This document shows, in pieces, positions 14,199 to 56,501 of a stretch of DNA of 64,000 nt. The stretch comes from Ostreococcus lucimarinus (lineage: Eukaryota), in the NCBI GenBank assembly GCA_000092065.1, contig CP000585.1. One strand, written 5' to 3'. The notes beneath the pieces were generated by a model. The model saw nothing but the letters and a program-made list of their open reading frames with translations. It did not search any database and was not told the DNA's origin. Both the position numbers and the translations under genes were made by a program. The number at the start of each line of letters is the position of its first letter. The first letter of the stretch is position 1.

Positions 14199-14488
14199 CT
14201 AGAAATCAACCTCCGGTTGTTGCGTCGGCAAAAGTGAAAACCGCTTCTTCAGCGCGACTCGTTGCTTCGAAAACTTATCATCCGGCGAAAATCTCGCCGG
14301 GTGCGCCGATTGCGTCGGCGTTCCATCCGGGGCGGTTTTCTGCGTCGCGAAATCCGGCGCGTCAGTCGCGCGTCCGTAGGGTTGCGTCGCCTCGCGCGCG
14401 CGTCGCGAATTCGCCTCGCGCGTCGTCGCCCGCGCTCGCGCACCTTGAGCGTGTACACCCGCTCGCCCTTCTCGTTCATGTAATACAT
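14199..14488 (-). CDS. NOP10: H/ACA snoRNP protein NOP10 with two exons: 14444..14488 and 14199..14339.
   Basis: Exon 1 reads [15 protein letters not shown], then the donor AAG|GTGCGCGAG. After the acceptor CGCAG, exon 2 in a different frame reads [46 protein letters not shown] and matches the NOP10 C-terminus. The gene is hidden in the ORF track inside a 436-aa Arg-rich antisense ORF. Confidence 0.8.
14340..14443 (-). other. Spliceosomal intron of NOP10 (104 nt).
   Basis: GTGCGCGAGCG...GACTGACGCGCCGG...CGCAG. Splicing restores the NOP10 reading frame. Confidence 0.75.
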
Positions 14489-14767
14489 CAAGTACCTGCG
14501 TTCGTTCGCGCGCGTTCGACGCGCGTCAGTCGCTCGCGTTCGCGTCCCGTCGCCGCTCGAAATTCCGGCGGCGGCGATCGCCTCTCGGCGTTTCCGCGCC
14601 GTCCCCGTCCCGCGTCCGCGACGCCGCGTCCGCGTCCGCGATCGCGCGCGCGTCGCGCGATTCTCGCCCGCGCGTCGCGTCGTCGCGTCGTCGCGTCGTC
14701 GCGCGCACGCACATGTCGCTCGTGACCTCGCGTCGCGCAATGCCGAATCGGCATTCGCCGGCGCGCC

Positions 14768-15106
14768 ATGTCGCGCGCGCTGCGGCGCCTCGCGCGCGCC
14801 AAGCACGACGCGGCGACGAATCCCATGGGGTTCCTGCTCGAGAACCCGCTGAAGCTGTACCGCGATTGCATGCGGTTGGCGGATTTCTTGGCGCACAAGC
14901 AGGGACACTCCAGGGACGCGCTGCGCGCGACGGTGCGAGCGCCGTGGAGGACGCACAGGGACGAGCGCGATCCGGAAAAAATCGTGGCGCTGCGAGAGAA
15001 CGCGGTGCGGGGGCTGTCGAATTACATGATGTACGAGGCGTCGCGGGGCGCGATGGCGGGGACGCCGGCGTTCGCGAAGGAGGACGAGGAAGAGCGACGA
15101 GAGTAG
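14768..15106 (+). CDS. LYR-motif (Complex1_LYR family) small protein.
   Basis: ATG ORF of 112 aa with NPLKLYRDCMRLADFLAHKQ... (L-Y-R motif), typical of the LYRM / ISD11 / SDHAF-like family. Confidence 0.6.
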   Translation: MSRALRRLARAKHDAATNPMGFLLENPLKLYRDCMRLADFLAHKQGHSRDALRATVRAPWRTHRDERDPEKIVALRENAVRGLSNYMMYEASRGAMAGTPAFAKEDEEERRE

Positions 15107-15133
15107 ACGAGAGTAGACGAGAGTAGACGCGAA
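15100..15133 (+). repeat. Three tandem copies of an 11-nt unit (gagtagacga) at the stop codon / 3' end of the LYR gene.
   Basis: gacgagagtagacgagagtagacgagagtagacg; each unit contains a TAG. Confidence 0.8.
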
Positions 15134-15171
15134 GGATGTAACATATTGCGATTTGATGGTTTCACGAGTCG

Positions 15172-15924: not shown

Positions 15925-16051
15925 GACGTTCGGGTCGAGTGACGAGCGTCATTGTGTGCGTCGGCGCGCTCGAGACGGTTCGCGTTCCACGAGGCGATCG
16001 CGGTGGTTAATACAACAACAACAGCGAGGCTGGCGGATAGCGCGACGGCGA

Positions 16052-17227: not shown

Positions 17228-17699
17228 CGCGCCCGCTTTATCCGCGACGCTTCGCGCCGTCGACGTCAATCCATCCTTCAGCGAACTCAAATCGATCCCA
17301 CGACCCTGCGTCGCCCCATCTCCTCGCTGCTTCGTCCCGTTCGCCCCATCGGCCGCGCGTCAGTCTCCATCGCCTCCCCGTCGCGCGTCTCGCCTCTCTT
17401 CGCGCATCGCGTCGCCATCCGCGTCGCGATCCTCGTCGGCGTGGATGGTGTTACGCATCCATCGATTCGCGTCGCGTCGCGTCGCGTCGCGCCGCCGCGC
17501 CGCCGCGCCGTCGTCGCTCGCACCTGGTGCGTCTCGCCCACGCGCTCGTACCCCGCGGTCCAGTTCTTGAGCGCGTCCATCGTCGTCGCGCTGTGCCGCG
17601 CGTCGTCACTCCATCGCGCGCGCGTCGTCGCGCCTCCATGCTCGCGCCGCTCGCGCGCGTCGCGCGTCGCGCGAGGACGACGGCCGAGGACGCGTCGTC

Positions 17700-18857
17700 G
17701 TGGTCGGCGGCGGCGCGGCGGGCGTCGCGTGCGCGCGCGCGCTCGCGGCGACGCGCGAGGTGACGCTGTTCGACGGCGGACGCGCGCCGGGAGGGCGGGC
17801 GTCGACGCGAGAGGGACGAAGAGGGGCGTGGGAGCACGGCGCGCGCTTCGTCGACGTCGAACGCGAACGCGAACGGGAACGCGACGACGACGACGACGAC
17901 GCAGCGGACGCGTGGATGCGAGACAGAGCGCGCGAGGGCGCGTTCGTAAGATGGGAAGGCGCGGTGGTGGCGCTGCGCGGCGGACGCGCGGTGAAGAAAA
18001 GGCTGGGCGCGCGACGGACGGCGACGCCGTCGTTCGGCGCCGTCGCGAAGGCGCTGCTCGAAAAGGTGGATTTGCGCGCGAGCGCGCGCGTCGTCGGGTT
18101 CGACGCGAGCGACGTCGACGGCGCGGGCGTGGTGGTGAAGTATCGAAGCGCGGCGCCGGACGAGGGAGGCGAGACGCGGTCGATGTCGGGGTTCGACGTG
18201 GTGGTGCTGGCGGATAAGAACGCGGCGAACGTCGCGGACGCGTTGGGCGTGGAAGAGCTCGCGCGAGCGATGCGGGAGGTGCCGTCGGTGCCGTCGTTGG
18301 TGTTGATGGTGACTTTGAATCGCGCGCCGGCGATCGAATTCGTGGGGGCTGAGATTGAGAACGACGACGCGTTGAGTTGGATCTCGAACGAGTCGTCGAA
18401 ACCGTCGCGGCGGCGCGACGCCAACTGTTGGGTCGCGCACTCCACCGACGCGTACGCGCGCGCGAAAGTGAATCTCGACACGCGTCCCGGAACTCGCGAG
18501 CACGACGCGTGGATGGACGCGGTCGCGAACGAGATGAGCGAGTCGTTGTTGCGAATTCTTCGCGAAGCCGAGGCGAACGCCGACGTCGACGTCGACGGCG
18601 CTCCGCTGGAGATTACGTACGCGCGCGCCCATCGCTGGGGCGCCGCGTTCCCGGCGGCCGTCGCCGCGGGCGCCGAAAAGTCCAAATTTCTTCGCGCCAC
18701 GTCGACGTCGCCGACCGGTCGCGTCACCACCGTGTACGCCGTCGGCGACTATTGCGTCGAGCACGATAGATTCGGCGGCTTTCGCGCCGCCGTCGCGAGC
18801 GGTCTCGCCTGCGCCGAAGACATACTCGCGACGAAATCGGCGCGTTCAAAACTTTAG
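17700..18857 (+). CDS. NAD(P)/FAD-binding amine-oxidase/renalase-like oxidoreductase. The 5' end is unresolved.
   Basis: Rossmann motif VVVVGGGAAGVACARALAA...LFDGGRAPGGRAS. The track start at 17700 is GTG. There is no in-frame ATG after the upstream stop, and the nearest ATG (17638) is out of frame. Confidence 0.55.
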   Translation: MVGGGAAGVACARALAATREVTLFDGGRAPGGRASTREGRRGAWEHGARFVDVERERERERDDDDDDAADAWMRDRAREGAFVRWEGAVVALRGGRAVKKRLGARRTATPSFGAVAKALLEKVDLRASARVVGFDASDVDGAGVVVKYRSAAPDEGGETRSMSGFDVVVLADKNAANVADALGVEELARAMREVPSVPSLVLMVTLNRAPAIEFVGAEIENDDALSWISNESSKPSRRRDANCWVAHSTDAYARAKVNLDTRPGTREHDAWMDAVANEMSESLLRILREAEANADVDVDGAPLEITYARAHRWGAAFPAAVAAGAEKSKFLRATSTSPTGRVTTVYAVGDYCVEHDRFGGFRAAVASGLACAEDILATKSARSKL

Positions 18858-18957
18858 CGGCGCATCGTCGTCATCTGTATCATACGCATTGTTTGTCTCC
18901 GAGCGCCCGTCGTCTTCGCGAGTCCTCACTTCGGTGCTCGCGCGCGCCGTCGTCGCC

Positions 18958-19776: not shown

Positions 19777-19894
19777 ATTTAGCCCTTCCGGCGATGAGGT
19801 GTGATGGAATCGTCGTCGTCGTCGTCGCCTCGGCGCTCGCGTCGCGCGCGAATTCGCCCGCGGCGCCACACCGCGCCTCGGCGCGACGCGCGCC

Positions 19895-21478: not shown

Positions 21479-21571
21479 TCGCGCCCGAGCGCGCGTCCCG
21501 CCCCGTCCCGTCCCGACGACAGTTGGTAAAGTGCGCTGGGCGCACATCGCGGCGCGATTCCTGACGCGAGC

Positions 21572-25305: not shown

Positions 25306-25572
25306 CGTCGTCGTCCGCGACGTCGTCGGCGCGCTCTTACCTCTCGCGTCCTTTCCCTGTTCGAGCGCGCGTCGTCGTCAGTCTCGTTCGCGCGCGTCTC
25401 GATCGCGACGTCGCCGCGTTTCGCATCGTTCGTTCGTCCACCGCCGTCGTCGCGGCGTCGCGCGCGCGCGCACCTCGTCCATCGCGACCTCTTCGTCGTC
25501 GCCGCGCCTCGGCGCGTCGCGCGCGTCCATCGCGTCCGTCGCGCGTCGAGGTGTCGACCGAAGTCGCGCGTC

Positions 25573-28037: not shown

Positions 28038-28745
28038 CTCGCGCCCGCGCGCGCGCGCCGCGTCCCCGCCGCGTCCCCGCTCGACGTCTTCGTCCTCGCG
28101 CGCGTCCTCGCGCGCGCGCGCGTCCTCGCGCGTTCGCCGCGCGCGTCCGCGCGTCGCCTCGTCGTCGTCGTCGCTCGCGCTCGATCCCGCGCCCGACGAC
28201 GCGCGCGCCGTCCGCGCGTCGCGCGCCGACGCGCGTTCGCCGCGAAGGAGCGCCTCGCGCTCGTCGCGCGACGACCGCGGCATCCTCGCCCGCGCCGTCG
28301 TCTCGCGCGCGCGACGACGCCGTCGCGATGGTGTTGCGCGCGCGGCGTTACGAAAACCCGTAACACACCGCACACGCGTGCGATCGCGCGCGCGCGTCCC
28401 GTCCCATCGCGCGCCGTATTTAAGCCCCGAGGGACTCGCGCTCGAGTCGCGACTCGTCGACGAGATCGGATCCGTCGATCGCGCGAAGATACGCCCGCAC
28501 ACCCCGACGACGACGATGCTCGCGCGCACGACCGCACCGACTCGCACGACCGCCACGCTGCGCAGGTGCGCGCGAAGCGCGACGCGAATCGCGGCGCGGC
28601 GCGACCGCGCGCGCGACCGGAGACCGAGGACGCGCGACCGGAGACCGAGGACGCGAGGACGAGGGAATCGTCGCGCGAGGCGCGGCGAGGCGAGCGATCG
28701 CGCGCGCGAACGGACGAGAGGACTGACGAGACGCGATGGTGACGA

Positions 28746-29102
28746 ATGAATAGCCGCGTGGCGAAGCAAACGCGCACGGCGAAGCGCGGCGCGCGCGTCG
28801 CGGCGCGCGCGTTCGATGACGTGAACGTCGTGATCTCGTCGGCGAACGCGATTTGCCTGGCGTTGGGACGATTCGTGTTTTTGCCGTACCAACGCGCGCA
28901 AGTCGAACGCGTGGGCGCGCCGACGCAAAACGGACAGACGCACTTCGCGGCGGGCGACTCGCGCGCGGAGGAGGCGTCCTTCATCGTGTCGACGAACGAT
29001 CCGGCTGGGTTCACGATCGTGGACCTGCTCGCGTGGGGGTCCATCGGGCACGCCGTCGGATTTCTCGCGCTCGCGTCCCAGTCGGCGCAAACGATGTTGT
29101 GA
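28746..29102 (+). CDS. PSAG: Photosystem I reaction centre subunit PsaG (PSI-G) precursor.
   Basis: ALGRFVFLPYQRAQVERVGAPTQNGQTHFAAGDSRAEEASFIVSTNDPAGFTIVDLLAWGSIGHAVGF matches PsaG (LAWGSIGH...), not PsaK. ATG at 28746 with a short basic presequence. A longer transit peptide in an upstream exon is possible. Confidence 0.8.
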   Translation: MNSRVAKQTRTAKRGARVAARAFDDVNVVISSANAICLALGRFVFLPYQRAQVERVGAPTQNGQTHFAAGDSRAEEASFIVSTNDPAGFTIVDLLAWGSIGHAVGFLALASQSAQTML

Positions 29103-29202: not shown

Positions 29203-31515
29203 CTACGTGTGAGGCGGGGGGCGAAGAAACTGCCGCGCGTGCGCGCTCAACTCGCCGGCGTTTTCGAAATCCGACGCCGAGACAAAGGCGTTGACGCGCT
29301 CGAGCTTGAGCAAACGCAACGCGTCGGCGTTCAAATCGAGATCGAAATCGTCGTGAAGTTTTGAAATCGTGCGCGTCAACGCGTCGACGTTTGCGAGATC
29401 GGTCTCGTAGGTCAAGTTCACGCACTCGCGCTGGTGCGCTCGCAAGACGCTCGCCGTCGCCTCGTACCATCGCTTGTCCTCTCGAATGAGATTTCTGAAC
29501 GTTTTCTCGATAAACTTCACCCGCACGTTCGCGGACGTGACGTTCGGATCGCGCGCGGTGATGTTTTCCGCGTCGAAAGGCTCGGCAGCCTCTCGAATCT
29601 GCTGGAACGGCGCGTCGCCGTTCACCGCACGCATCGACGACGCGTACATGTCGAGCTTGTTTTCGCGACTCAAGCACAACAGCACGGGGTCTTCCGTAGC
29701 GGCGTCCAAGATGGCGCTGAGAACATCTTCCGAATGTTTGCTCGTCTCGGGCGTTGAATGGATGTGCGCGCCGATGATGGATACGTACACCTTGTCCACG
29801 CCAGCCTCCCACGCTCGGCTCAATACTTCGTTGACGAACTCACCCGGATACGTCAGCGAGGCGTCAATCGTGGCATCCTTGACGCCGATGTCTTGCAAGT
29901 ACTTTCGGAGCTTTGAACGCCAAGACGTTTCGTCGTCTTTGTCGGGGAGTTCGTCCACCGACCACCAATCGCCAAGGGTGATGTAATTCGCAAAAAACGA
30001 ATCCGTTCGCACCTGGCCGTCTCGCTCCCACAACGTGGACGACGTCGGATGATTGGAAGACGTCGCAAGCGCTTCACCGAGAAGTGACGCGCCGCCGCGC
30101 AAAGGCGACGAAGCGAGCACGAGACGGGCTTTTTTATACACGCCCTCGGTTTCGTGCAATCGCACGCGCGTGACGAGCGAGCTCGTAGCCTCGGACGAGA
30201 GCACGCGAACGAAAGACAGCGCCCACTTGTGCACGAGATCTTCATCTGCCGGGATGTTCTTCTCGAGCCATTCCACCACCATGGCTTGTCGCTCTTGATT
30301 CGTGCACCCATCCTGCCAACTCGCGCCGTGAAACGAAAAGTGGTCGATAGCGTACGATTGCGGGTACGCGCTGGCGATCGACGTGCACGGAAGAGTCGTT
30401 TTCCAAAACGTCCCGTCCGCCTCCTCCACGAGCGCGTTTGAGAGCGACAACGGATTCCAATCATCGTTGCCAGATGTCACACGCCGCCACGTCTGCGTCA
30501 CGTACTTAGTGAACGACGATTTCGTACCATCTAAATCGCTCCCATCCACCGCCTTGCCGTTATTCATCATCCACCGCATGCCAGGATCGTTCTTGGCGTC
30601 TTCGTGCGTGACTTGCTTGACGCACGTATCGAACTCATTTTCGCCGCATCCGAGCGGGTACGCGACGTCGCGATCGAGCCTCAGTATCGTGTCTCTCAAA
30701 TCGTTCGCACGAATGATGTGCGACAACCACACAGGACCCGTGATCGCGTTCGCGATGCACCGCTTGCCGAAATCTATGTTTTGCAGGTATCCGTCCGAGG
30801 AGGTGTCGTTGAACAAACTTCGAAACACGCTCGCTCCGGGCGTGAGCGCGCCGAATATCCCAGCGCTAAAGAACCTCGAGTCCCCGGGGTCGGCCACCAT
30901 GAACACCTCCTTGTTCGCCCGCAACGTCTTATGAAACAACGGCGTGATGTCCTTGAACAACTCCACGTTCGTGTCCAAGTACAATCCGCCGTGACGAAAC
31001 AACACCTCGTACTTCATCAAATCCACCAACATCGAATACACGTTCGATCCCGTGAGTTGATGAAACGCCCGCCCGCGCTCGAGCGTCGCCAGCGTAATCG
31101 GAAAGTTCCTCTCATTAATGTCTCCCTCCGTCCACAGCCGCATCTCCCACCCAGCCGCCTCCAACACCCTTCGGTTGCGCTCGAAAATCATTCGCTTCAC
31201 CCCCGGCACCTCGCTCCCGAGCCAAATCTCGTGCGCCACGCGCACGAACGCCCCCGCGTCGCTCTGTTTCGCCAGCATCTCCTCCCTGGCCACCATCCCA
31301 CACACGCCCAGCGTCAGCATCGTCGCCACGACGATCGGATGCGTCGCCCACGTCGTCGTCGCGCGCAGCCAGCCGCGTCGTCGCTCGGGGTGTTGACGCG
31401 TCGTCGCGTCGCCGCGCTCGACGTCCGGCGCGTCATCGCGCGCGCGCGCGAGCAGCGCGAGCGACTCGTCGCCGCCGGCGATCGCCGCCGACCGCGCGCC
31501 GTCGCCGACGCCCAT
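29203..31515 (-). CDS. Large membrane-anchored glycosyltransferase with an N-terminal GT32-like (DXD sugar-binding) domain and an approximately 500-aa C-terminal extension of unknown function.
   Basis: TM anchor IVVATMLTLGVCGMVA. GT32 signature ...FHQLTGSNVYSMLVDLMKYEVLFRHGGLYLDTNVELFKDITPLF. The track start at 31611 is TTG. The first ATG is at 31515 (MGVGDGARS...). Confidence 0.65.
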   Translation of the reverse strand: MGVGDGARSAAIAGGDESLALLARARDDAPDVERGDATTRQHPERRRGWLRATTTWATHPIVVATMLTLGVCGMVAREEMLAKQSDAGAFVRVAHEIWLGSEVPGVKRMIFERNRRVLEAAGWEMRLWTEGDINERNFPITLATLERGRAFHQLTGSNVYSMLVDLMKYEVLFRHGGLYLDTNVELFKDITPLFHKTLRANKEVFMVADPGDSRFFSAGIFGALTPGASVFRSLFNDTSSDGYLQNIDFGKRCIANAITGPVWLSHIIRANDLRDTILRLDRDVAYPLGCGENEFDTCVKQVTHEDAKNDPGMRWMMNNGKAVDGSDLDGTKSSFTKYVTQTWRRVTSGNDDWNPLSLSNALVEEADGTFWKTTLPCTSIASAYPQSYAIDHFSFHGASWQDGCTNQERQAMVVEWLEKNIPADEDLVHKWALSFVRVLSSEATSSLVTRVRLHETEGVYKKARLVLASSPLRGGASLLGEALATSSNHPTSSTLWERDGQVRTDSFFANYITLGDWWSVDELPDKDDETSWRSKLRKYLQDIGVKDATIDASLTYPGEFVNEVLSRAWEAGVDKVYVSIIGAHIHSTPETSKHSEDVLSAILDAATEDPVLLCLSRENKLDMYASSMRAVNGDAPFQQIREAAEPFDAENITARDPNVTSANVRVKFIEKTFRNLIREDKRWYEATASVLRAHQRECVNLTYETDLANVDALTRTISKLHDDFDLDLNADALRLLKLERVNAFVSASDFENAGELSAHARQFLRPPPHT

Positions 31516-31825
31516 CGCCGCGTCGTCTGCCGTCCGCTCGCCGATGGTGTTACGCCGCGCGCGAACTTCGAGGTCGATACGAAACGCCGTCTTGGTTTGC
31601 GCACCATGCAAAAACGTCTCTTCGTCTTCCGAACGCGATCATCGCCCGCCGCGCGCCGCGCGCGCGGCGTCACACGCGCGCGCGCGACGACGCGATCGAT
31701 CGACGCGCGCGCGACGGACGCGCGCGGCGAACGCGCGCGCGGCGCGAGACGACGCGCGGCGCGACGTCGGGGACTCGAATTCGGACGGTTCGGTGAAAGC
31801 CGCGCGCGGCGAGGCGTCGGTGACG

Positions 31826-41678: not shown

Positions 41679-42373
41679 ATGGGGCTTCTCAGCATCATAA
41701 AAAAAGTACGCTCGGCGTCGCCCGCGCGCGCGTTTCGTCTCTCGCCTCGCGCGCGCGTCGCTCGCGACGCCGAACCGTCGAGTCGAGTTCGTTGTTCGTT
41801 GACCCGCGCTGACGCTGACTTCGTCCCCGCGCTCGCGAAACGCAGGTCAAGGCCAAGGAGCGCGAGCTCCGCGTCCTCATGGTCGGCCTCGATAACGCCG
41901 GGAAGACGACGATCGTGAAACGAGTGAACGGGGAACCGATCGATGAAATCTCCCCGACGCTCGGGTTCAACATCAAGACGATGACGTTCGGCGCGTACTC
42001 GTTGAACATCTGGGACGTAGGCGGACAGAAAACGCTGCGGTCGTATTGGAAAAACTATTACGAAGCGACGGATGCACTGATTTGGGTCGTGGACAGCGCG
42101 GACGGGCGACGGATGCGAGACTGCGCTCGCGAACTCGCGGGCGTGCTCGGCGAGGAGAAGCTCGCGGGGGCGAGCGTTTTGATTTTCGCGAATAAGCGCG
42201 ATATTCAAGGCGCCATGGACGTGGATGCTATGGTGGATGCGTTAGGGTTGAAGACGCTGGTGAATCGGCACTGGAACATCGTCGCGTGCTCGGCGGTGAC
42301 CGGCGAAGGGTTACTCGAGGGGTTCGACTGGCTCGTGAAAGACTGCGCGGATAGGATTTACATGTTCGATTAG
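41679..42373 (+). CDS. ARL2: ADP-ribosylation factor-like protein 2 (ARL2) with two exons: 41679..41705 and 41846..42373.
   Basis: Exon 1 MGLLSIIKK, then an intron GTACGC...CGCAG, then exon 2 [46 protein letters not shown]...[17 protein letters not shown]...FANKRDI.... This is co-linear with human ARL2 ([31 protein letters not shown]...). Confidence 0.85.
41706..41845 (+). other. Spliceosomal intron of ARL2 (140 nt).
   Basis: GTACGCTCGG...GCTGACGCTGACTTCG...CGCAG; phase 0. Confidence 0.8.
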
Positions 42374-44333: not shown

Positions 44334-45325
44334 TTATTTACACTCCTCCTCCTCGTCTTCTGGGTCACCTCCGGCGTGATAGAACGGACTCGTCGTCAAC
44401 TTGCGGCGAGTGTCGACGACGACGAGCGGGCGGCACTCGCAGTTCTGCGGCCACGCGTGCATGTGTTCGCGCATATTTTCGCTCGGCACGTGTCCACCGA
44501 AGCAGTACTCCACCATTAGATTGCACATGAACGCCGAGTGTGTGACGACTATGATTGAATCTTCCTCGCGATCGAAACACCAGTCGAGAAACTTTCGCGC
44601 TCGCGCTCGCAGCACCGGTTCGGGCTCGCGATTCTCTCGGCCCGGCTTCCACAACACGTCGTCCTCGTCCTCGATGAACGAAAAGTCAACCCCAGGAAAC
44701 TCTCGTCGATATTCGCTGACGCTGCGCCGTCTATCGCACGGATTCCCGCCTATTTGCTCGCGCACCATTTCGAGCGCGACGAATTTCTTCCCCCCGCGCA
44801 ACCGCGCGTCGCACCTCAACGCCGGTCGTTCGCACGCCTTCATCGCCTCCGCCCTCGTCGCCTCCATCAGCACGCACCCATCGCCGTCGACCGATCCGAA
44901 CATCCCCGCCGCCGTCTCCATCGCTCGCGTCAACGGCGACACCACCACCAGTTCGCACGTCTCCAACATTTTCCCGTACGCGTCGCGCGACTCGAGCGTC
45001 TCTTTAAAATGTTCGCACTGTCGCCATCCTCGCGCCGTGAGTCTCGCGTCCGCGTACGCCTCGCTCCCGTACTCCTTCGGGTCTCGCTCGCCCGCTGCGC
45101 TCCCGGCGCTCGACGCGCGCCGTCAGTCGTTTTCCTTCGGCTTTCGTCACCGACCGTCTCTGATTTCAATCTTCTCGCGCGTCGCGTCCGTCGCGTCGCG
45201 CGCGTCGCACCTCGATTGTGAAACCCCTCGGCGTGTCGTATGAGATAGATCGTCTTCGTCGCGCCCGCCGGCGCGCAGTGCACGTCGCGCGCGTCCGCGC
45301 TCGGCGGATGGCGCACCCAGCCCAT
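44334..45325 (-). CDS. Phosphoglycerate-mutase-like histidine phosphatase (plant PGM-like protein 1 family) with two exons: 45211..45325 and 44334..45094.
   Basis: Exon 1 MGWVRHPPSADARDVHCAPAGATKTIYLIRHAEGFHNR carries the RHG catalytic motif, with donor CGAG|GTGCGACG in phase 1. After CGCAG, exon 2 continues (A)GERDPKEYGSEAYADARLTARGWRQ...LVVVSPLTRAMETA...NPCDRRRSVSEYRREFPGVDFSFIEDEDDVLWKP...IIVVTHSAF. Plant PGM-like 1 reads HNVEGEKNHDAYLS...LTPLGWKQ...ITSPLLRTMQTA...HPCDKRRSVTEYKALFP. Confidence 0.8.
45095..45210 (-). other. Spliceosomal intron of the PGM-like gene (116 nt).
   Basis: GTGCGACGCGCGCGACGCGACGG...GACTGACGGCGCG...GCGCAG; phase 1. Splicing joins the RHG exon to the downstream ORF in frame. 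Confidence 0.75.
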
Positions 45326-45382: not shown

Positions 45383-46528
45383 ATGGCGGCGACGCGCGGG
45401 GAGTACGCGACGTACGGCGTGGGCGCGTTTTTGGCGTGCGTGTCGAGGGTGCGCGACGGCGCGACGCGACGCGACGCGACGCGACGGCGCGGCGCGACGG
45501 CGCGACGGCGCGACGGCGCGACGCTTTCTCTTCGCCGCGACGACGCGTCGACGCGCGAACGCGACGCGCGAAGGAGCGACGCGCGAAGAAGCGCGGACTG
45601 ACGGGAGTCGTGACTCGCGTGACAGGGCGTCACGGGCGTGGGCGCGGCGATACTGTTCCTCGTGACCTGGGTCGTGTTCTCCGTGGCGGGCGCGGAGACG
45701 AGCTCGCTGAAGGACACGGTGGCGCTGGAGGCGTTCGTGGGATTGGTGACCATGGTGCCGTTCATCACGTCGGCGAACATTCGCGAACACACGAATTGGG
45801 TGATACTGGCGTCGTTTTTACCGTGTCAGGCGGCGAGTGTGCCGTTGGGGGCGCTCGCGTTGCAGAGGGTGTCGCCGGCGTATTTGGAGCTGACGTTTTC
45901 GGCGTTGATCGCGTTGTTCGTGAGCGAACGCACGGGGGCGTTCGGGTACGTCGCGCGAAAGTGTGGAGGTGGCGAGAGTACGACGACGGTATCGACGACT
46001 GCCGGTGACGGTGATGGCGACGCACGGGGCGTGAACGCACCCGACGTGGAGACGGGCGAAGAGGTCGAGGCGCGCGCAAACTGGTGGAAAGAGCCCAAGA
46101 AATTCCTCATGTTGCCCGTGGACAACGATGGCTTGACATTCAACGGCGAAAATTGGAAGTTTATGCTTTGTTGGGCCGTCGCTGGGTGCATGAGTGGCTT
46201 TTTGGGCGGTATGACGGGCACGCACGGTCCGCCGGCCATCGCGTGTTACACGATGATGAAGGTGAGTAAAGACATCGTGCGCGCCACGAGCGCGGCGATT
46301 CTTGTCACAGTCATGTGCTCGCGCCTCGTCACGTACGCCGTGAACGGGATGTTTGACATTAGTAAACCCGGCGTCTACGGCACCGCTGGCGGCTGCGGAC
46401 TCGCCGGCGTGTTCCTCGGCATTTACGCGCAAAAGTTCGTCGACAAGGACCAGTTTACGAAAATTTTACTCGGCATCCTCGGACTCGGTTCGGTGCTCAT
46501 GCTCTACAAGGGCATCGAAGATCTATGA
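45383..46528 (+). CDS. TauE/SafE (DUF81) family membrane permease with two probable exons: 45383..45448 and 45626..46528.
   Basis: The downstream ORF (track 45638, GTG start) lacks an ATG. An upstream ATG at 45383 gives MAATRGEYATYGVGAFLACVSR, then donor AGG|GTGCGCGACGG. After branch ACTGACGG and acceptor GTGACAG comes GVTGVGAAILFLVTW.... The second TauE half-repeat is present (...GCMSGFLGGMTGTHGPPAIACYTMMKV...). It is divergent from the PGM-like gene, only about 57 bp apart. Confidence 0.6.
45449..45625 (+). other. Probable intron of the TauE/SafE gene (177 nt), internally repetitive ((GCGACGCGAC)n and (GGCGCGACG)n).
   Basis: GTGCGCGACGGCGCGACGCGACGCG...GCGGACTGACGGGAGTCGTGACTCGCGTGACAG. 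Confidence 0.55.
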
Positions 46529-47608: not shown

Positions 47609-48283
47609 CTACATCTCCAACAGTCCCCGCAACGCCTCCCTCGCATCGTCCTTTTCCGCATCCCGTTTCCTCTTCCTATCCTTCTTCTCTCGCTTCCTAT
47701 CCTTCGGCTTCGCCCTCGAGACCCCCCCGCCGGCGCCGAGCTTCTCCGCGCACCGCGCGCACGCGCGCACCTTCATCATCGCCTTCTTCCTCACCCCTCC
47801 CTCGTCGTACGCGAACACGCACTCGAACGACGCCAACCCATCGCTCGTCTCGCATCTCTTCTCGCCGCACGTGAACTGCCCCTTCCCCGCCCGCACCTCC
47901 GCCGCCGTTCGCCACCGCGCCCCCGTCTCGCCGTCTCGCGTCGTCGCGTCGAACACCGCGTACGCCTTGTACAGCTTTTCGTGATACCGTCTCGCCAGTC
48001 GCACCGCCCACGCGTCGCCGCGCCTTTCGTCCTCCTCGTCGTCTCTCACGAATCGGTGCTCGCGCGCCAGCGCGTCGCCGTCGCCGCGCGCGCGCCGCGC
48101 GTTCGCGCCGCAGAACCGCTCGTGCGCGTCGAGCAGCGCGGCGTGACGCGCGCGAGGGCTCAGCCGCGCGAAGTCGGCGCGATCGAGCGCGGCGCGCGCG
48201 ACGTCGTCGCCGCGCGCGCGCCGCATCGCGCGTCGCGGCGTGCGGGCGACCGACCGCGCGGGCGCCGTGCACGCATAAATCAT
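47609..48283 (-). CDS. FRA10AC1: FRA10AC1 homologue.
   Basis: RYHEKLYKAYAVFDATTRDGETGARWRTAAEVRAGKGQFTCGEKRCETSDGLASFECVFAYDEGGVRKKAMMKVRACARCAEKL matches the conserved Fra10Ac1 core (YHKKLFKEY...GKGQFxCGxKxC...). The ATG at 48283 is verified. C-terminal Lys/Arg-rich tail. Confidence 0.7.
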   Translation of the reverse strand: MIYACTAPARSVARTPRRAMRRARGDDVARAALDRADFARLSPRARHAALLDAHERFCGANARRARGDGDALAREHRFVRDDEEDERRGDAWAVRLARRYHEKLYKAYAVFDATTRDGETGARWRTAAEVRAGKGQFTCGEKRCETSDGLASFECVFAYDEGGVRKKAMMKVRACARCAEKLGAGGGVSRAKPKDRKREKKDRKRKRDAEKDDAREALRGLLEM

Positions 48284-48392
48284 CCATCACACATGGGCGA
48301 ACGGGTCGCAGAGTACGCGATCGAACGCGCGGGCGCCGTACACGCATAAATCATCACACATGGGCGAACGGGTCGCGGAGTACGCGATCGAA
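48258..48392. repeat. Tandem duplication (about 69 + 66 nt, about 92% identical) spanning the FRA10AC1 start codon and 5' leader.
   Basis: cgcgggcgccgtgcacgcataaatcatccatcacacatgggcgaacgggtcgcagagtacgcgatcgaacg is followed by a near-identical copy at 48327. The copy creates extra upstream ATGs, including a 25-codon uORF. Confidence 0.85.
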
Positions 48393-48617
48393 CGCCCGCG
48401 GCGCGCGATAAAAATCGACCGCGCGACGTCACCCGTTTGACCGCGGCGCCGCACACGCCGGCGCGCCGCGCGACCGCGCGCGCACGAGCGCGCGGACGTC
48501 GAGCGCGACGTGAAGCGTCGCGTCGTCGCGGCGAGCGCGCGCGCGACGCGAGGAAGCGAACGCGACGCGACGCGAGGAAGCGAACGCGAAGACGCATTCG
48601 CGCGCGCGGCGCGCACG

Positions 48618-49713: not shown

Positions 49714-50360
49714 TTACAGGTACTTTTCCACCGTCCCGGTGAGCGTGCTCTTCGGCACCGCGCCAATCACAGTGTCCATCTTTTGACCACCCTTGAAGAT
49801 CATCACGGTCGGGATGGAACGAATGCCGTACTCCGTCGCCACGCTAGGGGATTCATCCGTGTTAAGCTTGACCTGCACGCGCACAAAAATCGTTGAAACT
49901 CGTCAGTCGCCGCGCTTTGTTTGTCTCACCGCGTCACCCTCGCTCGACGCCGCCCCGCGCGCGGCGTTCTACGCTCGCGCGCGCACCCTCGCGCGCGCCA
50001 TCGCGCGCGACTACACTCGCGATCGAACATTTTCAACGTACCGCCTTGAGCTTCCCTTGGTACTCCTCCGCGAGTTGATCAATCAAAGGCGCAATCATTC
50101 GGCACGGCCCGCACCACGGCGCCCAAAAATCCACGAGCACCGGAACGTCGGACTTCAACACTTCCGCCTCAAACGTCGCGTCCGTGACCACGGTCGCGAG
50201 CGAGCCTGCGCGTGCACACACATTTTCATCCGTCAGTCGCCTCGTTCGCGAATATCGCGCGTCCGCGCGCGCCGCGATTCTCTTGTCTATAGAGCCCTCG
50301 GACCCCCACACCCGGGTGGCTTATCGCGAACGCGATCAGGGGTAACGACGCGATTCCCAT
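49714..50360 (-). CDS. Thioredoxin (m-type, plastid-like), spliced. Exons are 49714..49872, 50042..50205, and a 5' exon that is not resolved (candidate 50312..50360 or longer).
   Basis: The middle exon reads ...[54 protein letters not shown], then donor GCG|GTACGT. The last exon, after GTGCAG, reads [52 protein letters not shown]. The middle exon starts 2 nt after CGCAG, implying a phase-1 upstream exon. Candidates are [16 protein letters not shown]+G (ATG 50360, donor G|GTGTGG) or a longer Ser/Thr/Arg-rich transit peptide from further upstream. Confidence 0.75.
49873..50041 (-). other. Intron between the thioredoxin middle and last exons (169 nt).
   Basis: GTACGTTGAAAATG...GTGCGCGTGCAG; phase 0. 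Splicing joins ...KLKA to VKLNTDE..., as in Trx m. Confidence 0.75.
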
Positions 50361-50866
50361 CGCGCCCGCGCGCCGCGCGCCGCCCCGCATCCGCCCCCCG
50401 GCGCCCGCGTTCGACGCGCGTAAATCTCCACCGCGCATTCCCACCCCTCGACGTCCGAGCGTCGCGTCGCGCGCGCGTCGCGCGTCGCGAATGCACCGCG
50501 CGCGCGCGCCCGCGATCGCGCGCATCTTCATTCGCGTTGACGCACCGCTCGTGCTCGTCTCCTCCGCGCGCGCGACGACGCGCGCGCGGTTGGACGGCGT
50601 TCTATTTTGGTGCGTTTTTCGCGTCACCGAGGTCATCGCGGGGCATCGCGCGAGGGTGAGCGACATCGTATACGCGCGTCGCGCGATGCCGACGTGGCCA
50701 TTATCCGAGTTGATCCGGCGCGGTAAACAATGATCCGTGTTGTATTGCACGAAACGACCCCATGTTTCTTTGAGTCAAGATCCGTCAGAGCTGAGGATCA
50801 CGTATTTCGAGCGCTGGAAGCGCATGAGTCGCGCGACGCGGCCGCCGCACGCCGCGGCGCGCGGCG

Positions 50867-51797
50867 ATGGCGACGCCGGCGTCCACCGTCGCGGGCACGC
50901 GCGTGGTGAAGATCGGGGACGCGTCGCTCGAGGTGCGGACGCGCGCGACGCGCGCGCGCGACGGCGCGACGGCGCGAACGCGCCAACGCGCGCGATGGGC
51001 GATGGGCGACTGACGGCGCGGTGACGACGACGCAGGTGCCCTCGTTCGTGAGCGCGTCGAACGTCGGGACGAGCGCGCCGCGAAAGAAGCATTTTCGTCA
51101 GCGCGCGCACTGTAATCCGTTGAACGATGGGTACTATTACGCGCCCGTGGGACCGTGGGAGATCGACTGGCGCGAGCACTACGAGGAATTTTTCGCGAAG
51201 CGGGACGGCGACGGCGACGCGGGAAGTCTGAAGATACGCTTCGCGGACGTCGGATGTGGGTTCGGAGGGATGCTCGTGCGACTGGCGGAGGTGTTTCCGG
51301 AAAAGTTGATGCTCGGGATGGAGATACGGGACAAGGTGAGCGAGTACGTGCGCGAGCGGTGCGCGGCGTTGCGCAAGGACCACCCGGGTAAGTACTGGAA
51401 CATTTCGTGCGTGCGGGCGAACGCGATGAAAAATTTGCCGCAATATTTCGAAAAGGGGCAATTGGAGAAGCTCTTCTTTTTGTTTCCCGATCCACACTTC
51501 AAGGCGGCGAATCATAGGCGAAGAATCGTGACGACGACGTTACTCGCCGAGTACGCGTACGTGCTCGCCGAGGGCGGAATTTTGTACACCATCACCGACG
51601 TCGAGGAACTCGGTAAATGGATGTCCGATCACATGTCCGCGCATCCAATGTTTGAACGCGTGCCCGAGGCTGAGCTCACGAAAGATCCCGTGGTGCCGCT
51701 CCTTTACACGGGCACCGAGGAAGGGCAAAAAGTTGAGCGAAACTCGGGTTCGACGTTTCTCAACGTCTTCAGGCGCGTCGCCAACCCGAACCATTAG
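50867..51797 (+). CDS. TRM8: tRNA (guanine-N7)-methyltransferase TRM8/METTL1 with two exons: 50867..50932 and 51036..51797.
   Basis: Exon 2 reads VPSFVSASNVGTSAPRKKHFRQRAHCNPLNDG...FADVGCGFGGMLVRLAEVFPEKLMLGMEIRDKVSEYV...FFLFPDPHFK...ITDVEELGKWM.... Human METTL1 reads ...KRYYRQRAHSNP...FADIGCGYGGLLVEL...FFLFPDPHFK. The track start at 51021 is GTG. The proposed exon 1 is MATPASTVAGTRVVKIGDASLE, with donor GAG|GTGCGGACG, branch GACTGACGG and acceptor CGCAG. Confidence 0.75.
50933..51035 (+). other. Proposed intron of TRM8 (103 nt).
   Basis: GTGCGGACGCGCGCGACGCGCGCGCGCGACGGCGCGACGG...GGGCGACTGACGGCGCGGTGACGACGACGCAG. Confidence 0.6.
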
Positions 51798-51893
51798 TTA
51801 GCGCGCGTCAAGACGCAACGTAGTTTTCTAGATTCTAAGCCATCACAGTATTACATGATTCCCTACGTGCGCGCGACTTCCTCGCCCTCGCTC

Positions 51894-52217: not shown

Positions 52218-52353
52218 GGCGAACGCGCCGCGGAATGCGTCGCGGCGGAAACCCCCTGAATGGACTTTTGCGCTGTGTTCCGAACACTGGCTACGTAGAG
52301 CTCGGATGAATGTCGTATCACATGGGTCGTGGTGAAAATCGTCGAGAAGGAAA

Positions 52354-54816
52354 CTAGAGTTTGAGCTGGATGGCGACGCCGGCGTCATCGCGTCGCATGG
52401 TTTTCGTGCAGAGAGGATTTTCATCGAGCGCCGCGTCGGCGGCGGTGTGAACGATGATTTTCGCCTTGAGCGCGGACGCGGCGTTGGCCTTCTTTGCCAA
52501 AGCGATATCCGAGTCGACGTTTGACGGGACGTATTGCGCTACCATGACGGATTCAGTCCACGGCTTGAAGTTCAAGTCGACGTCGCCGTCATCGTAATCG
52601 ACGCGAAACGAATACGTGTGCGGATCGAAGGCGGTAATCGTGCCAGAGTAAAACGCGTTGTCCCGCTGCCACAGCACCACTATCCTCTGGCCTACGGCTT
52701 TGTCCTTGCGAAGCGCTAGTGTGGCGCCGATTTGACCGTGTCTCGCGAGTTCTATGATCTTCATCTGTGCGCACTTTGATTTCATCTTAGAACGACCAGC
52801 CGCGAGCTCCGACTCCGTGCCGGACGAACGCCGCGATCTCGTCTGCGGTTTGCTATCGGCCATAGCCTTGTGCGCTTCGGTGACGCACACGTCACATTCG
52901 TAACATGGCGATGGATCGGTGAAGAGATGTGCGTTGTTACGCTGCACGATTGGGTTGACGGGAGCCTCTAAATTCCTCGCATTGCACCACGCCCGTGCCG
53001 ACTCGACTGACTGCGTAAATTTCGCCTTTGAAGAAAACACAGGTTGTTTCATCGCTTCGCCGTAAAATTTGTCGAACGGATAAACTTCCGACGCTTTAAC
53101 CCATGCGAAGGATCTGCGATCGTCGAAAAAGATCACTAAACGATGATCCTCGGTGAACTTGGGGCTGAAAGCTGCAACACGTGCGCCCTCAGGGATAACG
53201 GCGTGATCCCGAAGCGGATGGAGCGCGACGCATGGCCAGTACATGGTCTTTCCTCGCACAGCTCCTTTCCATTTCACCCACGAGCACTCGCCGTGTGTCG
53301 TCATGCCATGTTCGTCTAAGTCGTTTTCGTTGTTTTCGTCTCGATGTCTCTTTTCCTTTGCAGCCTCTGTTTCTTCGCTCTCCCCCTCGTCTTCATCCGA
53401 ATCGTCGTCGTACTCATTGGCAGCTTGTTCGTCGTCTTCGGCGTCAATGTCTTCTAAAATGTCAATCTTAGACTTCTTTGATGGCGACGGCAGGGTCACT
53501 TGTGTCGAGTCACGCTTGACGTCTAACGCCGCGAGAATCGTCGAGTCAATGTTCTCGTGCGCGAGCTCGAGTCTCCGCAAGTAGCCTTCTCGAAGTTCGT
53601 ACCGCACGGGTTTGTTCTTTGTGAATTCAAGAAAATCGCCGAGCGGTGTGAAACCGCGAATGAGTGGAAACTCTGAAACTTCGTTCGGCGCGCGTTGTCG
53701 ACCTGTCCATTTCGGATCGCCGTTCACGTTGAGCATGTTGTAAGCGGCGAGCGGCCATGCCTTTGAAGATCGATCGCGCGTCGCTGGTCCCGGACACGGC
53801 TTTTCGAATGGCGTCGCCAGCGCATCGTAGGTAAATTTCACGTTGTACGGGCATTTCAACTGCTCGCCAAGCCACCGGCTTTGTGGGACGCTGCACGCCA
53901 GACCTAAGAGACTAAATCTTTTCATCGTTTGTAAATCCGTGTCGAACACCGGCGCTCGTTCGTTGGGACGCATGAGCGGATAGCAGGGTTCCGTATAACC
54001 CGGAGGAAATCCCATCAATCGTTCGGCGTCTTCTATCGCCAACATTGACAACTCAGCCTTTTGCTTTCCGATTTGGGTCGCGACACATGTACGACGTCCG
54101 TTGCTCGTCGTGAAGCAGTGCATGATATCGCAACACGGCGCTCGACGCTTCTCCCCGAGATCTATCGACGCCGAAAACATCTTTGTCGGTACTCGCGGTG
54201 GAGTGATGAAGCACTCGTAACACTCGTTGTTCATTCCCAGCTGGACGCACTCTCCCGAACACATCGCGCTCTGCGACAATAACACGTCTCGGGGATCACC
54301 GTGCAAAGATGCGACGACGAAAACGCGTCGTCGCTTATGAGGCGTCCCAAAGGACAAAAGATCGACGACGCGATACGCCCATCTGTATCCGAGATTTTCC
54401 AATTCATTGACTACGTAATCGATCGCCGGTCTCTGTTCGCCGTCGCTGTGCCACTTCAACAACCCGACGACGTTCTCGAGCAACAGCCACGGCACCCGTC
54501 TCGCCTCGAGCAAGCGAAACACGTGCGAGACGGAACGCGTGGCGCCGCCGAGCTCGAGTCCGGGTCGCTTGAGATTCTCGCAGCTGCAGTCGTTGCACGG
54601 AAACCCAGCGACGACGCAGTCGATGTTTTCGAGCATGAACGGGAGCACCTCCGCCACGTCATTGAGCAGCGCGACGCCCGGAAAGCGCGCCGAGAGGACT
54701 TGCTTGCAGTGGGCGTCGCGCTCTACCATGAGCTCTATGCGGTGGCCGGCTTGCTGGAGACCGAGATCGAGGCCTCCGACTCCGGAGAATAGGGACGCCA
54801 CGCGAAGACTCACCAT
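52354..54816 (-). CDS. Cytosine-5 DNA methyltransferase (Dcm/Dnmt fold). The catalytic domain is N-terminal, followed by C-terminal PWWP-like and Tudor-like reader domains.
   Basis: Motif I LFSGVGGLDLGL, motif IV GFPCNDCS, motif VI ENVVGLL, motif VIII ...TPHKRRRVFVVA, motif X-like ERLMGFPPGYTEP. Then an acidic linker. PWWP-like GECSWVKWKGAVRGKTMYWPCVALHP...FAWVKASEVYPFD. Tudor-like GQRIVVLWQRDNAFYSGTITAFDPHTYSFRVDYDDGDVDLNF. The ATG at 54816 is verified. Confidence 0.8.
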   Translation of the reverse strand: MVSLRVASLFSGVGGLDLGLQQAGHRIELMVERDAHCKQVLSARFPGVALLNDVAEVLPFMLENIDCVVAGFPCNDCSCENLKRPGLELGGATRSVSHVFRLLEARRVPWLLLENVVGLLKWHSDGEQRPAIDYVVNELENLGYRWAYRVVDLLSFGTPHKRRRVFVVASLHGDPRDVLLSQSAMCSGECVQLGMNNECYECFITPPRVPTKMFSASIDLGEKRRAPCCDIMHCFTTSNGRRTCVATQIGKQKAELSMLAIEDAERLMGFPPGYTEPCYPLMRPNERAPVFDTDLQTMKRFSLLGLACSVPQSRWLGEQLKCPYNVKFTYDALATPFEKPCPGPATRDRSSKAWPLAAYNMLNVNGDPKWTGRQRAPNEVSEFPLIRGFTPLGDFLEFTKNKPVRYELREGYLRRLELAHENIDSTILAALDVKRDSTQVTLPSPSKKSKIDILEDIDAEDDEQAANEYDDDSDEDEGESEETEAAKEKRHRDENNENDLDEHGMTTHGECSWVKWKGAVRGKTMYWPCVALHPLRDHAVIPEGARVAAFSPKFTEDHRLVIFFDDRRSFAWVKASEVYPFDKFYGEAMKQPVFSSKAKFTQSVESARAWCNARNLEAPVNPIVQRNNAHLFTDPSPCYECDVCVTEAHKAMADSKPQTRSRRSSGTESELAAGRSKMKSKCAQMKIIELARHGQIGATLALRKDKAVGQRIVVLWQRDNAFYSGTITAFDPHTYSFRVDYDDGDVDLNFKPWTESVMVAQYVPSNVDSDIALAKKANAASALKAKIIVHTAADAALDENPLCTKTMRRDDAGVAIQLKL

Positions 54817-54976
54817 CTTCGCCGCGTCGCGATGCGTCGAGCGTCGGGGTGTGTGGACGCGATCGCGGTCGCGCGGCGAGACGGGACGACGCCGACGGCG
54901 AGCAAATTCTAAAATACATTAAAAATATGCCTCTCGCTCGCGAAGAAACACACGACAATCTTGTTCTGAATCCTTC

Positions 54977-55607
54977 TTAATCTTGCTCGGAATCCTTCAA
55001 AATTTTGTTGTACAGCGTGGCTTCGTCGCATTCGACGCACTCGTCGATCTCCGCGTTGAGCGAGCAAAATAACTGTTCTCTCAAGATTTCCAAGTTCACG
55101 TCTTCGTACTTCTCCTGGCATCGCTCACCCCCGAGTCCGCGGTTGAAGTAACTGCGCCATCGTTTCAACAACACCACTCTCTGCGCGAGAATTCTCTGCG
55201 CGTGATCACTGCGCCCTTCGGCGAAGAGTTTCTTGATGAACTCGTCGCCTCGGTTCTTATACTCGCTCGCGGCGAAGTTGTACAACCACTTGTACTCCCC
55301 CTTCCCCGGCGACAAATCCGTCTCTTGCATCTGCGCCAGCGTCTCCTTGAGCGCTCGAAACGTAAAGTAGTTCATCAGCAAGCTGTCGACGTCGTTAAAA
55401 CTCTGTTCAGGCGCGCGCGCGTCGCGCATTCCGTCAGTCAATCGCTCGAAAAGTTTAAACTCGCGCACTCGCCATCGTCGAGACGTCGCCGCTACTCACG
55501 TCGCCGTACGCCCCGCCGAGGTCCCCGCGTCGAATGACATCGCGCGCGCGATGCCGCGCGACGCGTCGGGCGGCGAAAATCGGTGTCGCGCGCTTGACGC
55601 ACGACAT
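54977..55607 (-). CDS. RBCX: RbcX (Rubisco assembly chaperone) precursor with two exons: 55500..55607 and 54977..55402.
   Basis: Exon 2 SFNDVDSLLMNYFTFRALKETLAQMQETDLSPGKGEYKWLYNFAASEYKNRGDEFIKKLFAEGRSDHAQRILAQRVVLLKRW matches the RbcX core. The track start at 55468 is GTG. Proposed exon 1 is MSCVKRATPIFAARRVARHRARDVIRRGDLGGAYGD (transit-peptide-like), ending at donor GAC|GTGAGTAGC, with branch TTGACTGACGG and acceptor CTGAACAG, in frame. Confidence 0.7.
55403..55499 (-). other. Proposed intron of RbcX (97 nt).
   Basis: GTGAGTAGCGGCGACG...GATTGACTGACGGAATGCG...CCTGAACAG. Confidence 0.6.
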
Positions 55608-55831
55608 TTTGTGCGGGGTGCCCGCGTCCGTGGTCGACAGTTGAAGGGGCCTCGGCGCCAGCGTGGCTCGAGCGCGACATTCGAGGGATTGCGGTCGGGG
55701 AAGAGGGGATGTGGTATTGAATAGAGCGTAGAATGCTAAAGCGAGAGTGTGCGCGTCATCTCGACGCGCGGGTGGGCGAGAGGAGCGATGACGACGAGAT
55801 CCGCGATCGGGTCTCGGCGACTCGGCGCCGC

Positions 55832-56501
55832 TCACGCGGCGGGCTCGGGCGCGGTCAACGCCGCGTCCGTCGTGATCGTCGACGAGGTCTCCGCCACTTT
55901 GGGCGCGGGTGCGGGCTTATCGGTCGCGGGCATTCTCGCGCTCGTCGCGCGCTTCTCTACCGGTGCCTCTTGTAAGAGATCCACCACCTTGTACACGCCG
56001 AACAAGACCGCCGCTCCGACGGCGAGCGTCACGAGCGTCGTCACGCTCGGTCCCGAGCTTTCCACTACCTCGAAATCCTCTCCCCGAATCGTGTCTTCGC
56101 GCACTTGACCAGAGCGAATCGGGTCACCGCGCGCGTATCGACCCTCCTTCAGCGTCTTACTCTCCGGTCGCGAGCCGTAACTCTCCGGCGCCGTCTCTTT
56201 GCGGCCGTCCGGCAAGCTCTCCACGAGCTTTCCGATTAACCCGCCGAGCTCGGGCTTCTCTTCGCTGCGGTACGCCGAGGAATCTTTCGCCTCGTCTTCC
56301 GAACCGGCGCGTCGGACGATGTGGGCGCCTCGCGCGAGCTGCGAGCGGAAGAATCGGCGTTAATCACTGTCGACGTCATCAAACAACAAACGAGCGTCGC
56401 GCATCGTCGAACGAGCGTACCTGTCGCGCCGCGCGCGGGCATACGGTGGCGGGCGTCTTCGCGGAGACGTTTAAGCGCGCGGTGGCGGTGATGAGAGCCA
56501 T
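55832..56501 (-). CDS. Hypothetical single-pass membrane protein with a transit-peptide-like N-terminus. Two exons: 56421..56501 and 55832..56338.
   Basis: The downstream ORF (track 55832..56224, GTG start) extends in frame upstream to the acceptor CTCGCAG. Proposed exon 1 is MALITATARLNVSAKTPATVCPRAARQ, with donor CAG|GTACGCTCG. The mature part has an acidic stretch and the TM VTTLVTLAVGAAVLFGVYKVV. Confidence 0.45.

Follow-up and report, generated by a model that had tools for sequence, protein, structure and literature searches.

In Ostreococcus lucimarinus, the introns that lie outside chromosome 2 and are confirmed by expressed sequence tags (ESTs) contain ACTGAC in 87% of cases and the extended branch motif GACTGACG in 66.5%, together with an atypical 5' splice site consensus (GTGCGTG, 4.8 bits), a preference for CGCAG acceptors and a distance of 20-35 nucleotides (nt) between branch site and AG (Irimia and Roy, 2008, PMC2483917). 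In the sister genus, Micromonas, canonical introns carry AG|GTGCGT and NCTGAC (Verhelst et al., 2013, PMC3879977), and the introner elements (IEs) known as D-IE/IE-A in M. pusilla CCMP1545 and ABC-IE/IE-C in M. commoda RCC299 display ordered motifs over the entire element, ~80-100% identity, hundreds to thousands of copies and lineage-specific positions (Worden, 2009; PMC3879977; Simmons, 2015, PMC4540971). Here we analyze the short introns of one stretch of DNA from O. lucimarinus CCE9901 or a near-identical strain (contig CP000585.1, 64 kb, hereafter the window), which is GC-rich (~62%), gene-dense and located outside the atypical chromosome 2. A sequence-only reading of this window had counted nine introns, giving coordinates for eight, and had seen in their common motifs either a propagating introner-like family or a very rigid splice-site consensus. 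Very probably, the introns of the window belong to the canonical, U2-type spliceosomal class known from outside chromosome 2, are defined by a strict code and inherited vertically, and are not copies of a mobile element. The feature is already known and ordinary, the strict splice code having been published in 2008 and most of the introns being present in the 2007 annotation.

Splicing evidence and splice signals

The intron set comprises the eight introns with earlier coordinates and five further candidates obtained by a branch-motif scan of the window, that is, 13 introns in total (Table 1). On the strand originally assigned, each of the eight listed introns starts with GT, ends with AG and measures 82-177 nt, as had been claimed, and GT..AG ends are found in the complete set of 13. 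Spliced products identical to RefSeq proteins of CCE9901 were obtained for six of the eight: ARL2 matches XP_001417689.1 over 184/184 residues, TauE matches XP_001417692.1, TRM8 matches XP_001417695.1, the membrane (TM) protein matches XP_001417932.1, NOP10 with intron 2 removed matches XP_001417920.1, and the partial RefSeq model XP_001417926.1 of the His_Phos (PGM-like) gene crosses the junction and is identical to the spliced product. Pfam domains run without interruption over five junctions (NOP10, Arf, His_Phos_1, TauE and Thioredoxin), and the spliced PsaG/PsaK product, in which the intron joins a transit-peptide exon to the PsaG/PsaK domain, gives a PSI_PSAK match with an E value of 8e-21.

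Transcript-like sequences agree with these models. The ARL2 intron (41706/8-41845) is exactly missing from the RNA-type Logan contigs L008 and L009, the TM intron (56339/42-56420) from the RNA-type Logan contigs L014 and L015, and NOP10 intron 2 (14340/2-14443) from the RNA-type JGI contig L016. Removal from RNA is shown in this way for three introns. NOP10 intron 1, for which the sequence-only reading gave no coordinates, is retained in the transcript contig L016. Contig L008 terminates at the acceptor edge of the His_Phos intron, and the candidate at 17327-17523 joins two open frames. The listed intervals are genuine short introns near gene starts. An exact look-up of the spliced models of NOP10 (64 aa), His_Phos (291 aa), RbcX (177 aa) and thioredoxin (147/137 aa) returned no identical record, which for the first three is explained by a different NOP10 start, the partial His_Phos model and a truncated RbcX model in RefSeq; a RefSeq model for the thioredoxin gene was sought and not located.

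Donors are GTGCG in four, GTACG in three and GTGAG in one of the listed introns, and the corresponding counts for all 13 are nine, three and one. The motif GACTGACG is present in 11 of the 13, at a distance of 20-34 nt from the 3' end; the exceptions are ARL2, with CTGAC/TTGAC, and the TM intron, without CTGAC and with GATTAAC as its likely branch. Throughout the window GACTGACG occurs 11 times, compared with 4.3 ± 1.9 copies expected, and each of the 11 copies stands in an intron context. Among the candidates from the scan, all with GTGCG donors, it lies 29 nt ahead of CGCAG in NOP10 intron 1 (donor GTGCGTG), 32 nt ahead of AG in the candidate at 17327-17523, 20 nt ahead of AACAG in that at 25357-25473, 26 nt ahead of AG in the PsaG/PsaK intron and 26 nt ahead of CGCAG in thioredoxin intron 1 (donor GCG|GTGCGTC). 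The RbcX intron has a GTGAGT donor and GACTGACG 29 nt from its 3' end, 27 nt from the AACAG pentamer. Sites with ACTGAC at 24220, 26427 and 53006 (+) were rejected as introns, having neither the extended motif nor an intron context.

The common donor, branch and acceptor motifs (GTGCG/GTACG donors and a CTGAC-type branch at 20-34 nt) are thus confirmed, and they are the published, unusually strict splice signals of O. lucimarinus, in agreement with the rigid consensus that had been put forward as the fallback interpretation (Irimia and Roy, 2008, PMC2483917). The genome is intron-poor and its splicing code very strict, combining a G|GTGCG(T) donor with an extended branch site, GACTGACG, that precedes a (CG)CAG acceptor by 20-35 nt, so that any two O. 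lucimarinus introns share ~20 nt of signal.

Table 1. Introns and candidate introns of the window, with positions, strand and type of evidence
Feature	Position	Strand	Length and placement	Evidence	Set
NOP10 intron 2	14340..14443	-	104 nt, phase 0, after codon 18	RefSeq match, L016	listed
NOP10 intron 1, putative	14496..14712	-	217 nt, splits start codon AT|G	absent from RefSeq model	extra
Candidate intron, unnamed minus-strand gene	17327..17523	-	197 nt	signals only	extra
Candidate intron, upstream of or inside 23746-25305 gene	25357..25473	-	117 nt	signals only	extra
Photosystem I PsaG/PsaK gene intron	28566..28753	+	188 nt, phase 2	signals, Pfam	extra
ARL2 intron	41706..41845	+	140 nt, phase 0, after codon 9	RefSeq match, L008, L009	listed
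His_Phos (PGM-like) intron	45095..45210	-	116 nt, phase 1	RefSeq partial model, Pfam	listed
TauE intron, internally repetitive	45449..45625	+	177 nt, phase 0	RefSeq match	listed
Thioredoxin intron 2	49873..50041	-	169 nt, phase 0	Pfam, lineage comparison	listed
Thioredoxin intron 1, putative, joins transit-peptide exon	50206..50545	-	340 nt, phase 1	signals, lineage C	extra
TRM8 intron	50933..51035	+	103 nt, phase 0	RefSeq match	listed
RbcX intron, absent from RefSeq model	55403..55499	-	97 nt, phase 0	signals, related strain	listed
Intron of 195-aa membrane (TM) protein without known family	56339..56420	-	82 nt, phase 0	RefSeq match, L014, L015	listed

Sequence similarity beyond the splice signals

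Alignment of the 13 introns on their donors showed information only at positions 1-6; at positions 7-40 the relative entropy reached at most 0.4 bit, compared with a null mean of 0.19 and a 95th percentile of 0.49 (n = 13). Since there is no positional information beyond the donor, the similar stretches of 20-25 nt are not in register and correspond to runs of GCGACG and GCGCGACG units. The earlier impression that several introns begin with nearly the same 20-25 nt therefore dissolves into an out-of-register simple repeat of the GCGACG type, and the intron described as internally repetitive, that of TauE, indeed contains an 8-nt unit repeated nine times and a 15-nt unit repeated three times. 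CG-rich tracts are found throughout the window: of the runs of at least 30 nt, 74 are T-free and 88 are A-free, and there are dozens of Tandem Repeats Finder (TRF) arrays. For composition and density we counted around 24-25 curated start codons, since a gene map based on GC content at third codon positions (GC3) is too crude to separate coding from non-coding sequence. The heptamer CGCGACG lies outside introns in 242 of its 286 copies, with a density of 11.6 per kb over the 200 nt that precede the ATG, 8.3 per kb over the initial 150 nt of coding sequence (CDS) and 2-4 per kb deeper in the genes.

Comparison of the introns with the whole window gave the same picture. In an unmasked BLAST search, 156 of 198 high-scoring segment pairs (HSPs; 79%) fell outside introns, and for seven of the 11 introns with any match the best non-intron match exceeded the best intron match; one such region, 59304-59438(-), is a 5' untranslated region (UTR) covered collinearly by the RNA contig L014. 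At up to three mismatches, the 21 nt that open the His_Phos intron match eight other places in the window, none of them in introns. Global pairwise identity between introns has a median of 0.53 and a maximum of 0.77, compared with 0.49 and 0.71 when the interiors are shuffled. The additional similarity over 20-25 nt is due to simple repeats and not to homology. Between the splice signals, the interior of these introns would be unconstrained and filled by CG-rich simple sequence (GCGACG and GCGCGACG units) of the sort typical of the non-coding DNA, 5' UTRs and N-terminal coding regions of this genome. Such repeats would lengthen and shorten through replication slippage, which we infer to be their origin, and the apparent common starts are the donor consensus followed by repeats in arbitrary register.

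Introners were defined by Gozashti et al. (2022, PMC9860276) from introns with 20-nt flanks, using BLAST at E <= 1e-5 with similarity at both ends and requiring at least four introns of unrelated genes, while low-complexity families were discarded as possible microsatellite expansions. Among the 13 introns, no pair shows similarity at both ends at E <= 1e-5. With DUST masking a single collinear intron pair is left, PGM and TRM8 (70% over 102 nt, E = 1e-3), besides a trivial 13-nt antisense match between the TM intron and thioredoxin intron 2 (E = 0.01); without masking, BLAST returns numerous short, overlapping and off-diagonal HSPs between introns. No target-site duplications (TSDs) were detected, the 5' and 3' junctions of each intron matching at 7.6 of 20 positions compared with 6.8 ± 2.3 for mismatched pairs, and no terminal inverted repeats (TIRs) were found in the introns beyond CG-palindromic inverted end matches of up to 10 nt. 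A possible terminal inverted repeat of 8 nt, or zipper stem, in thioredoxin intron 2 was discarded, with a folding z score of 0.35 relative to shuffles and a motif not kept in a related lineage (lineage B, see below). Assembly GCA_000092065.1 was among the genomes screened for introners by Gozashti et al. (2022, PMC9860276); the introner-genome table (parts 1-2 of their supplement) gives 3,566 for M. pusilla and 44 for M. commoda with no Ostreococcus, and the first 'Ostreococcus' entry belongs to the list of metagenome-assembled genomes (MAGs; part 19). From the published screen and our 13 introns we infer that the rest of the genome contains no intron family.

Several observations weigh against this interpretation. 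Within introns CGCGACG reaches 21.5 per kb, about twice the density of the 5' flanks, and its orientation is 41:3 (sense:antisense) compared with 30:23 and 14:10 in the flanking 5' regions, a count that is inflated by tandem copies and becomes ~9:1 per intron, in a small sample. T makes up at most 8% of the sense strand in eight of the 13 introns (5-8%) compared with 13-16% in neighboring non-intron sequence. The only other window matches of the 21-mer from the TauE intron at up to three mismatches lie in two other introns, the PGM and TRM8 introns can be aligned nearly end to end at 70%, and direct examination was restricted to 13 introns of one 64-kb window. Plain neutral slippage or drift does not predict the repeat density, sense bias and low T of the introns. 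Even so, it appears improbable to us that the sense-oriented, T-depleted (GCGACG)n tracts arose otherwise than by neutral slippage, be it as the eroded body of an ancient, IE-C-like low-complexity introner or as a selected intronic splicing element.

As the first of these alternatives, the purine-type introns (NOP10 introns 1 and 2, the candidates at 17327-17523 and 25357-25473, PsaG/PsaK, His_Phos, TauE and TRM8) would descend from an old introner-like element, now degenerate, with an ancestral body made of a short unit of the form GTGCG-(GCGACG)n...GACTGACG...CAG, similar in kind to the M. commoda family IE-C/ABC-IE of 67 nt. The enriched and oriented CGCGACG, the TauE 21-mer confined to introns, the collinear PGM and TRM8 pair and the branch motif in common with M. 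commoda IE-C (PMC3879977) speak for such a descent, but the likeness between introns does not extend in register past donor position 6, their identity barely exceeds that of composition-matched shuffles, and the same strings are matched equally well in UTRs and coding 5' ends. Together with the single HSP remaining under DUST, the lack of any pair similar at both ends at E <= 1e-5, the lack of TSDs and TIRs and, in the published table, entries for Micromonas and none for Ostreococcus (Gozashti et al., 2022, PMC9860276), this makes a degenerate introner very unlikely.

The second alternative holds that a T-poor composition rich in GCGACG on the sense strand is a selected feature shared by convergence, acting as an intronic splicing enhancer or serving to avoid either U-rich decoys ahead of the branch point or stop codons. 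It would account for the orientation bias and the T content given above. Against it, five of the 13 introns do without the feature, at least two of these (ARL2 and TM) being demonstrably spliced, the orientation count is subject to the tandem-copy inflation and small sample mentioned, and a positive GC skew is seen generally after start codons rather than in introns specifically. We regard selection of this kind as most improbable, and the comparison of strains and lineages bears on both alternatives.

Conservation and turnover of intron positions

Metagenome contigs over window positions 31.9-52.4 kb are ~99.4% identical to the window, and each of six metagenome haplotypes of the O. lucimarinus population contains all six introns of this interval, without presence/absence polymorphism. 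The only intron indels among these haplotypes are deletions of 5 nt (CGCGA) and 6 nt (GCGACG) in the TauE repeat and an indel of 1 nt in thioredoxin intron 2. In addition, NOP10 intron 1 has five GCGACGAC units in another strain and three in the window. Such strain-to-strain changes in repeat units are microsatellite behavior, and a repeat length that is free to vary between strains argues against a selected composition.

Two other lineages of Ostreococcus with synteny to the window, designated B and C, have ARL2 genes 83-87% identical to that of the window. The ARL2 and TauE introns occupy the same positions in both lineages with sequences that are largely unalignable, the GTTCGTTGAC motif near the ARL2 branch site being kept. 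Lineage C has thioredoxin intron 1 at the same place, where the homologous exon ends in ...ACGAGCG|GTGCGTG; in lineage B the locus (L010) stops short of it. In TRM8 of lineage C the tblastn match begins exactly at exon 2. The boundary of NOP10 intron 2 falls at the same codon in related Mamiellales-like loci, the intron ranging in GC from 0.38 to 0.75 and in T from 0.08 to 0.43, and its interior tracks the composition of each host genome. Since other lineages have introns at the sites of NOP10 intron 2, ARL2, TauE and thioredoxin intron 1, these four are older than any burst confined to the species, which counts against descent from an introner; the position of NOP10 intron 1 likewise recurs in other lineages. 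The type of composition is also maintained in orthologues, TauE being purine-type in three lineages and ARL2 pyrimidine-type in two; this would be expected of a selected feature, but NOP10 intron 2 functions with T contents from 8% to 43% across lineages.

Two positions speak for some turnover within the genus, which would suit a formerly mobile element and weighs against strict vertical inheritance. Lineage B has thioredoxin intron 2 (L010 18214-18255), whereas lineage C (L013 ~18,650-18,700) lacks it and has contiguous coding sequence at the site (AAGGCG|GTGAAG); the difference is a gain or a loss within the genus. For the His_Phos intron, O. lucimarinus and lineage B agree in phase 1 and in a position after CACAATCGAG, but in lineage C (L012 13357-13483) it lies 17 nt downstream and in phase 0, reflecting either sliding or a loss plus a gain. 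Most of the positions checked are conserved across Ostreococcus lineages and the introns are old. A propagating, introner-like family, as had been proposed for them, is at odds with these mostly conserved positions as well as with the lack of a qualifying pair, of TSDs and of TIRs and with the loss of matches under low-complexity masking.

Gene models, neighboring features and related systems

The splice sites follow CDS nt 2, 54, 27, 115, 66, 121, 285, 66, 108 and 81, and 10 of the 11 introns that could be placed lie within ~120 nt of the ATG. This 5'-proximal position means that naive open reading frame (ORF) calling loses the short first exon. The warning in the sequence-only reading that gene callers would truncate these genes holds for the prokaryote-style or naive callers behind metagenome catalogues, where ARL2 appears as 164 aa, TauE as 296 aa, TRM8 as 258 aa, the TM protein as 130 aa, RbcX as 150 aa and His_Phos as 208 aa. 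In the reference annotation six of the eight introns were already present, although its RbcX model is itself truncated. In catalogues built with prokaryotic gene callers, hundreds of Ostreococcus proteins are truncated in this way, and the first exons lost often encode transit peptides or conserved N-termini. In GC-rich picoalgae, moreover, a donor consensus followed by a CG microsatellite can imitate an intron family, making low-complexity masking essential ahead of introner calls. The introns themselves have little consequence for intron biology and modest practical value, with a truncated RefSeq RbcX, an apparently split NOP10 start codon and the sense bias of the repeats as by-products of the analysis.

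A putative 217-nt intron (window 14496-14714, minus strand) appears to split the start codon of NOP10 (AT|G), and the RefSeq model appears to omit the first three codons. Removal of this intron would restore the conserved N-terminus MYLMYY of intronless relatives (ATG-TAC-CTC-ATG-TAC-TAC), the arrangement AG|G-TAT-TTG recurs in eight related loci (e.g., L051 and L078), and the Nop10p profile begins at residue 3 of the extended model. Among the 98 loci from a scan of metagenome NOP10 orthologues there were no RNA contigs with intron 1 removed; the sequences P0208 and P0209 proved uninformative, both being ORFs that result from genomic read-through.

For RbcX, the RefSeq protein XP_001417931.1 (150 aa) corresponds to the ORF of exon 2 only. 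The predicted intron would add a first exon of 36 codons (intron plus exon 1 region 55403-55607, minus strand), without annotation in RefSeq and likely encoding a transit peptide, and RefSeq thus appears to miss this exon. In a strain of 91% identity the RbcX donor has the consensus form GTGCGTGG in place of GTGAGTAG, with branch, acceptor and upstream ATG kept. This comparison came from the locus of P0210, the sole full-coverage match to spliced RbcX, which was rejected as a transcript on account of its genomic intron read-through.

Other features of the window include a 39-nt unit repeated 4.1 times at 99% identity (59491-59651), which contig L014 enters but does not cross and which lies immediately ahead of the 5' UTR belonging to the gene at 56710-59316, and a 67-nt unit repeated 2.3 times (48246-48404) in the divergent promoter of the Fra10Ac1 and fatty-acid hydroxylase genes, with indels of 58-68 nt among population haplotypes. 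A single stop codon separates two long minus-strand ORFs that share a frame (29203-31638 and 31639-33027); they could be two tightly packed genes or a single gene with an unrecognized intron or read-through. The gene at 52354-54816(-) encodes an 820-aa protein with a C5 DNA methyltransferase domain and weak Tudor-like matches, its exact sequence being found only in Logan read-set assemblies.

Like the introns described here, the Micromonas introners are short, GC-rich introns located in unrelated genes. The donor and the NCTGAC branch of canonical Micromonas introns are shared with these introns, and M. commoda IE-C contains a GACTGACG motif identical to the Ostreococcus branch motif (PMC3879977). 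In contrast to Micromonas IEs, the Ostreococcus introns show identity at the level of shuffled sequence, no common register, mostly conserved positions and neither TSDs nor TIRs. Their closest counterparts are the canonical non-chromosome-2 introns of the same species (PMC2483917), which have the same donor, branch, acceptor and branch-to-AG spacing, are ~100-200 nt long and GC-rich, and display no essential difference, the paper being silent on GCGACG repeats and sense bias. Relative to the 2007 annotation, the RbcX intron and NOP10 intron 1 are among the introns here without an entry. Hemiascomycete yeasts differ in their consensus sequences (GTATGT and TACTAAC), and Ostreococcus additionally has a lax class of introns on chromosome 2. 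Yeast introns cluster toward the 5' ends of genes. As in O. lucimarinus, the introns of hemiascomycetes are few and combine a near-invariant donor and branch site with a constrained distance from the branch site to the AG (PMC2483917).

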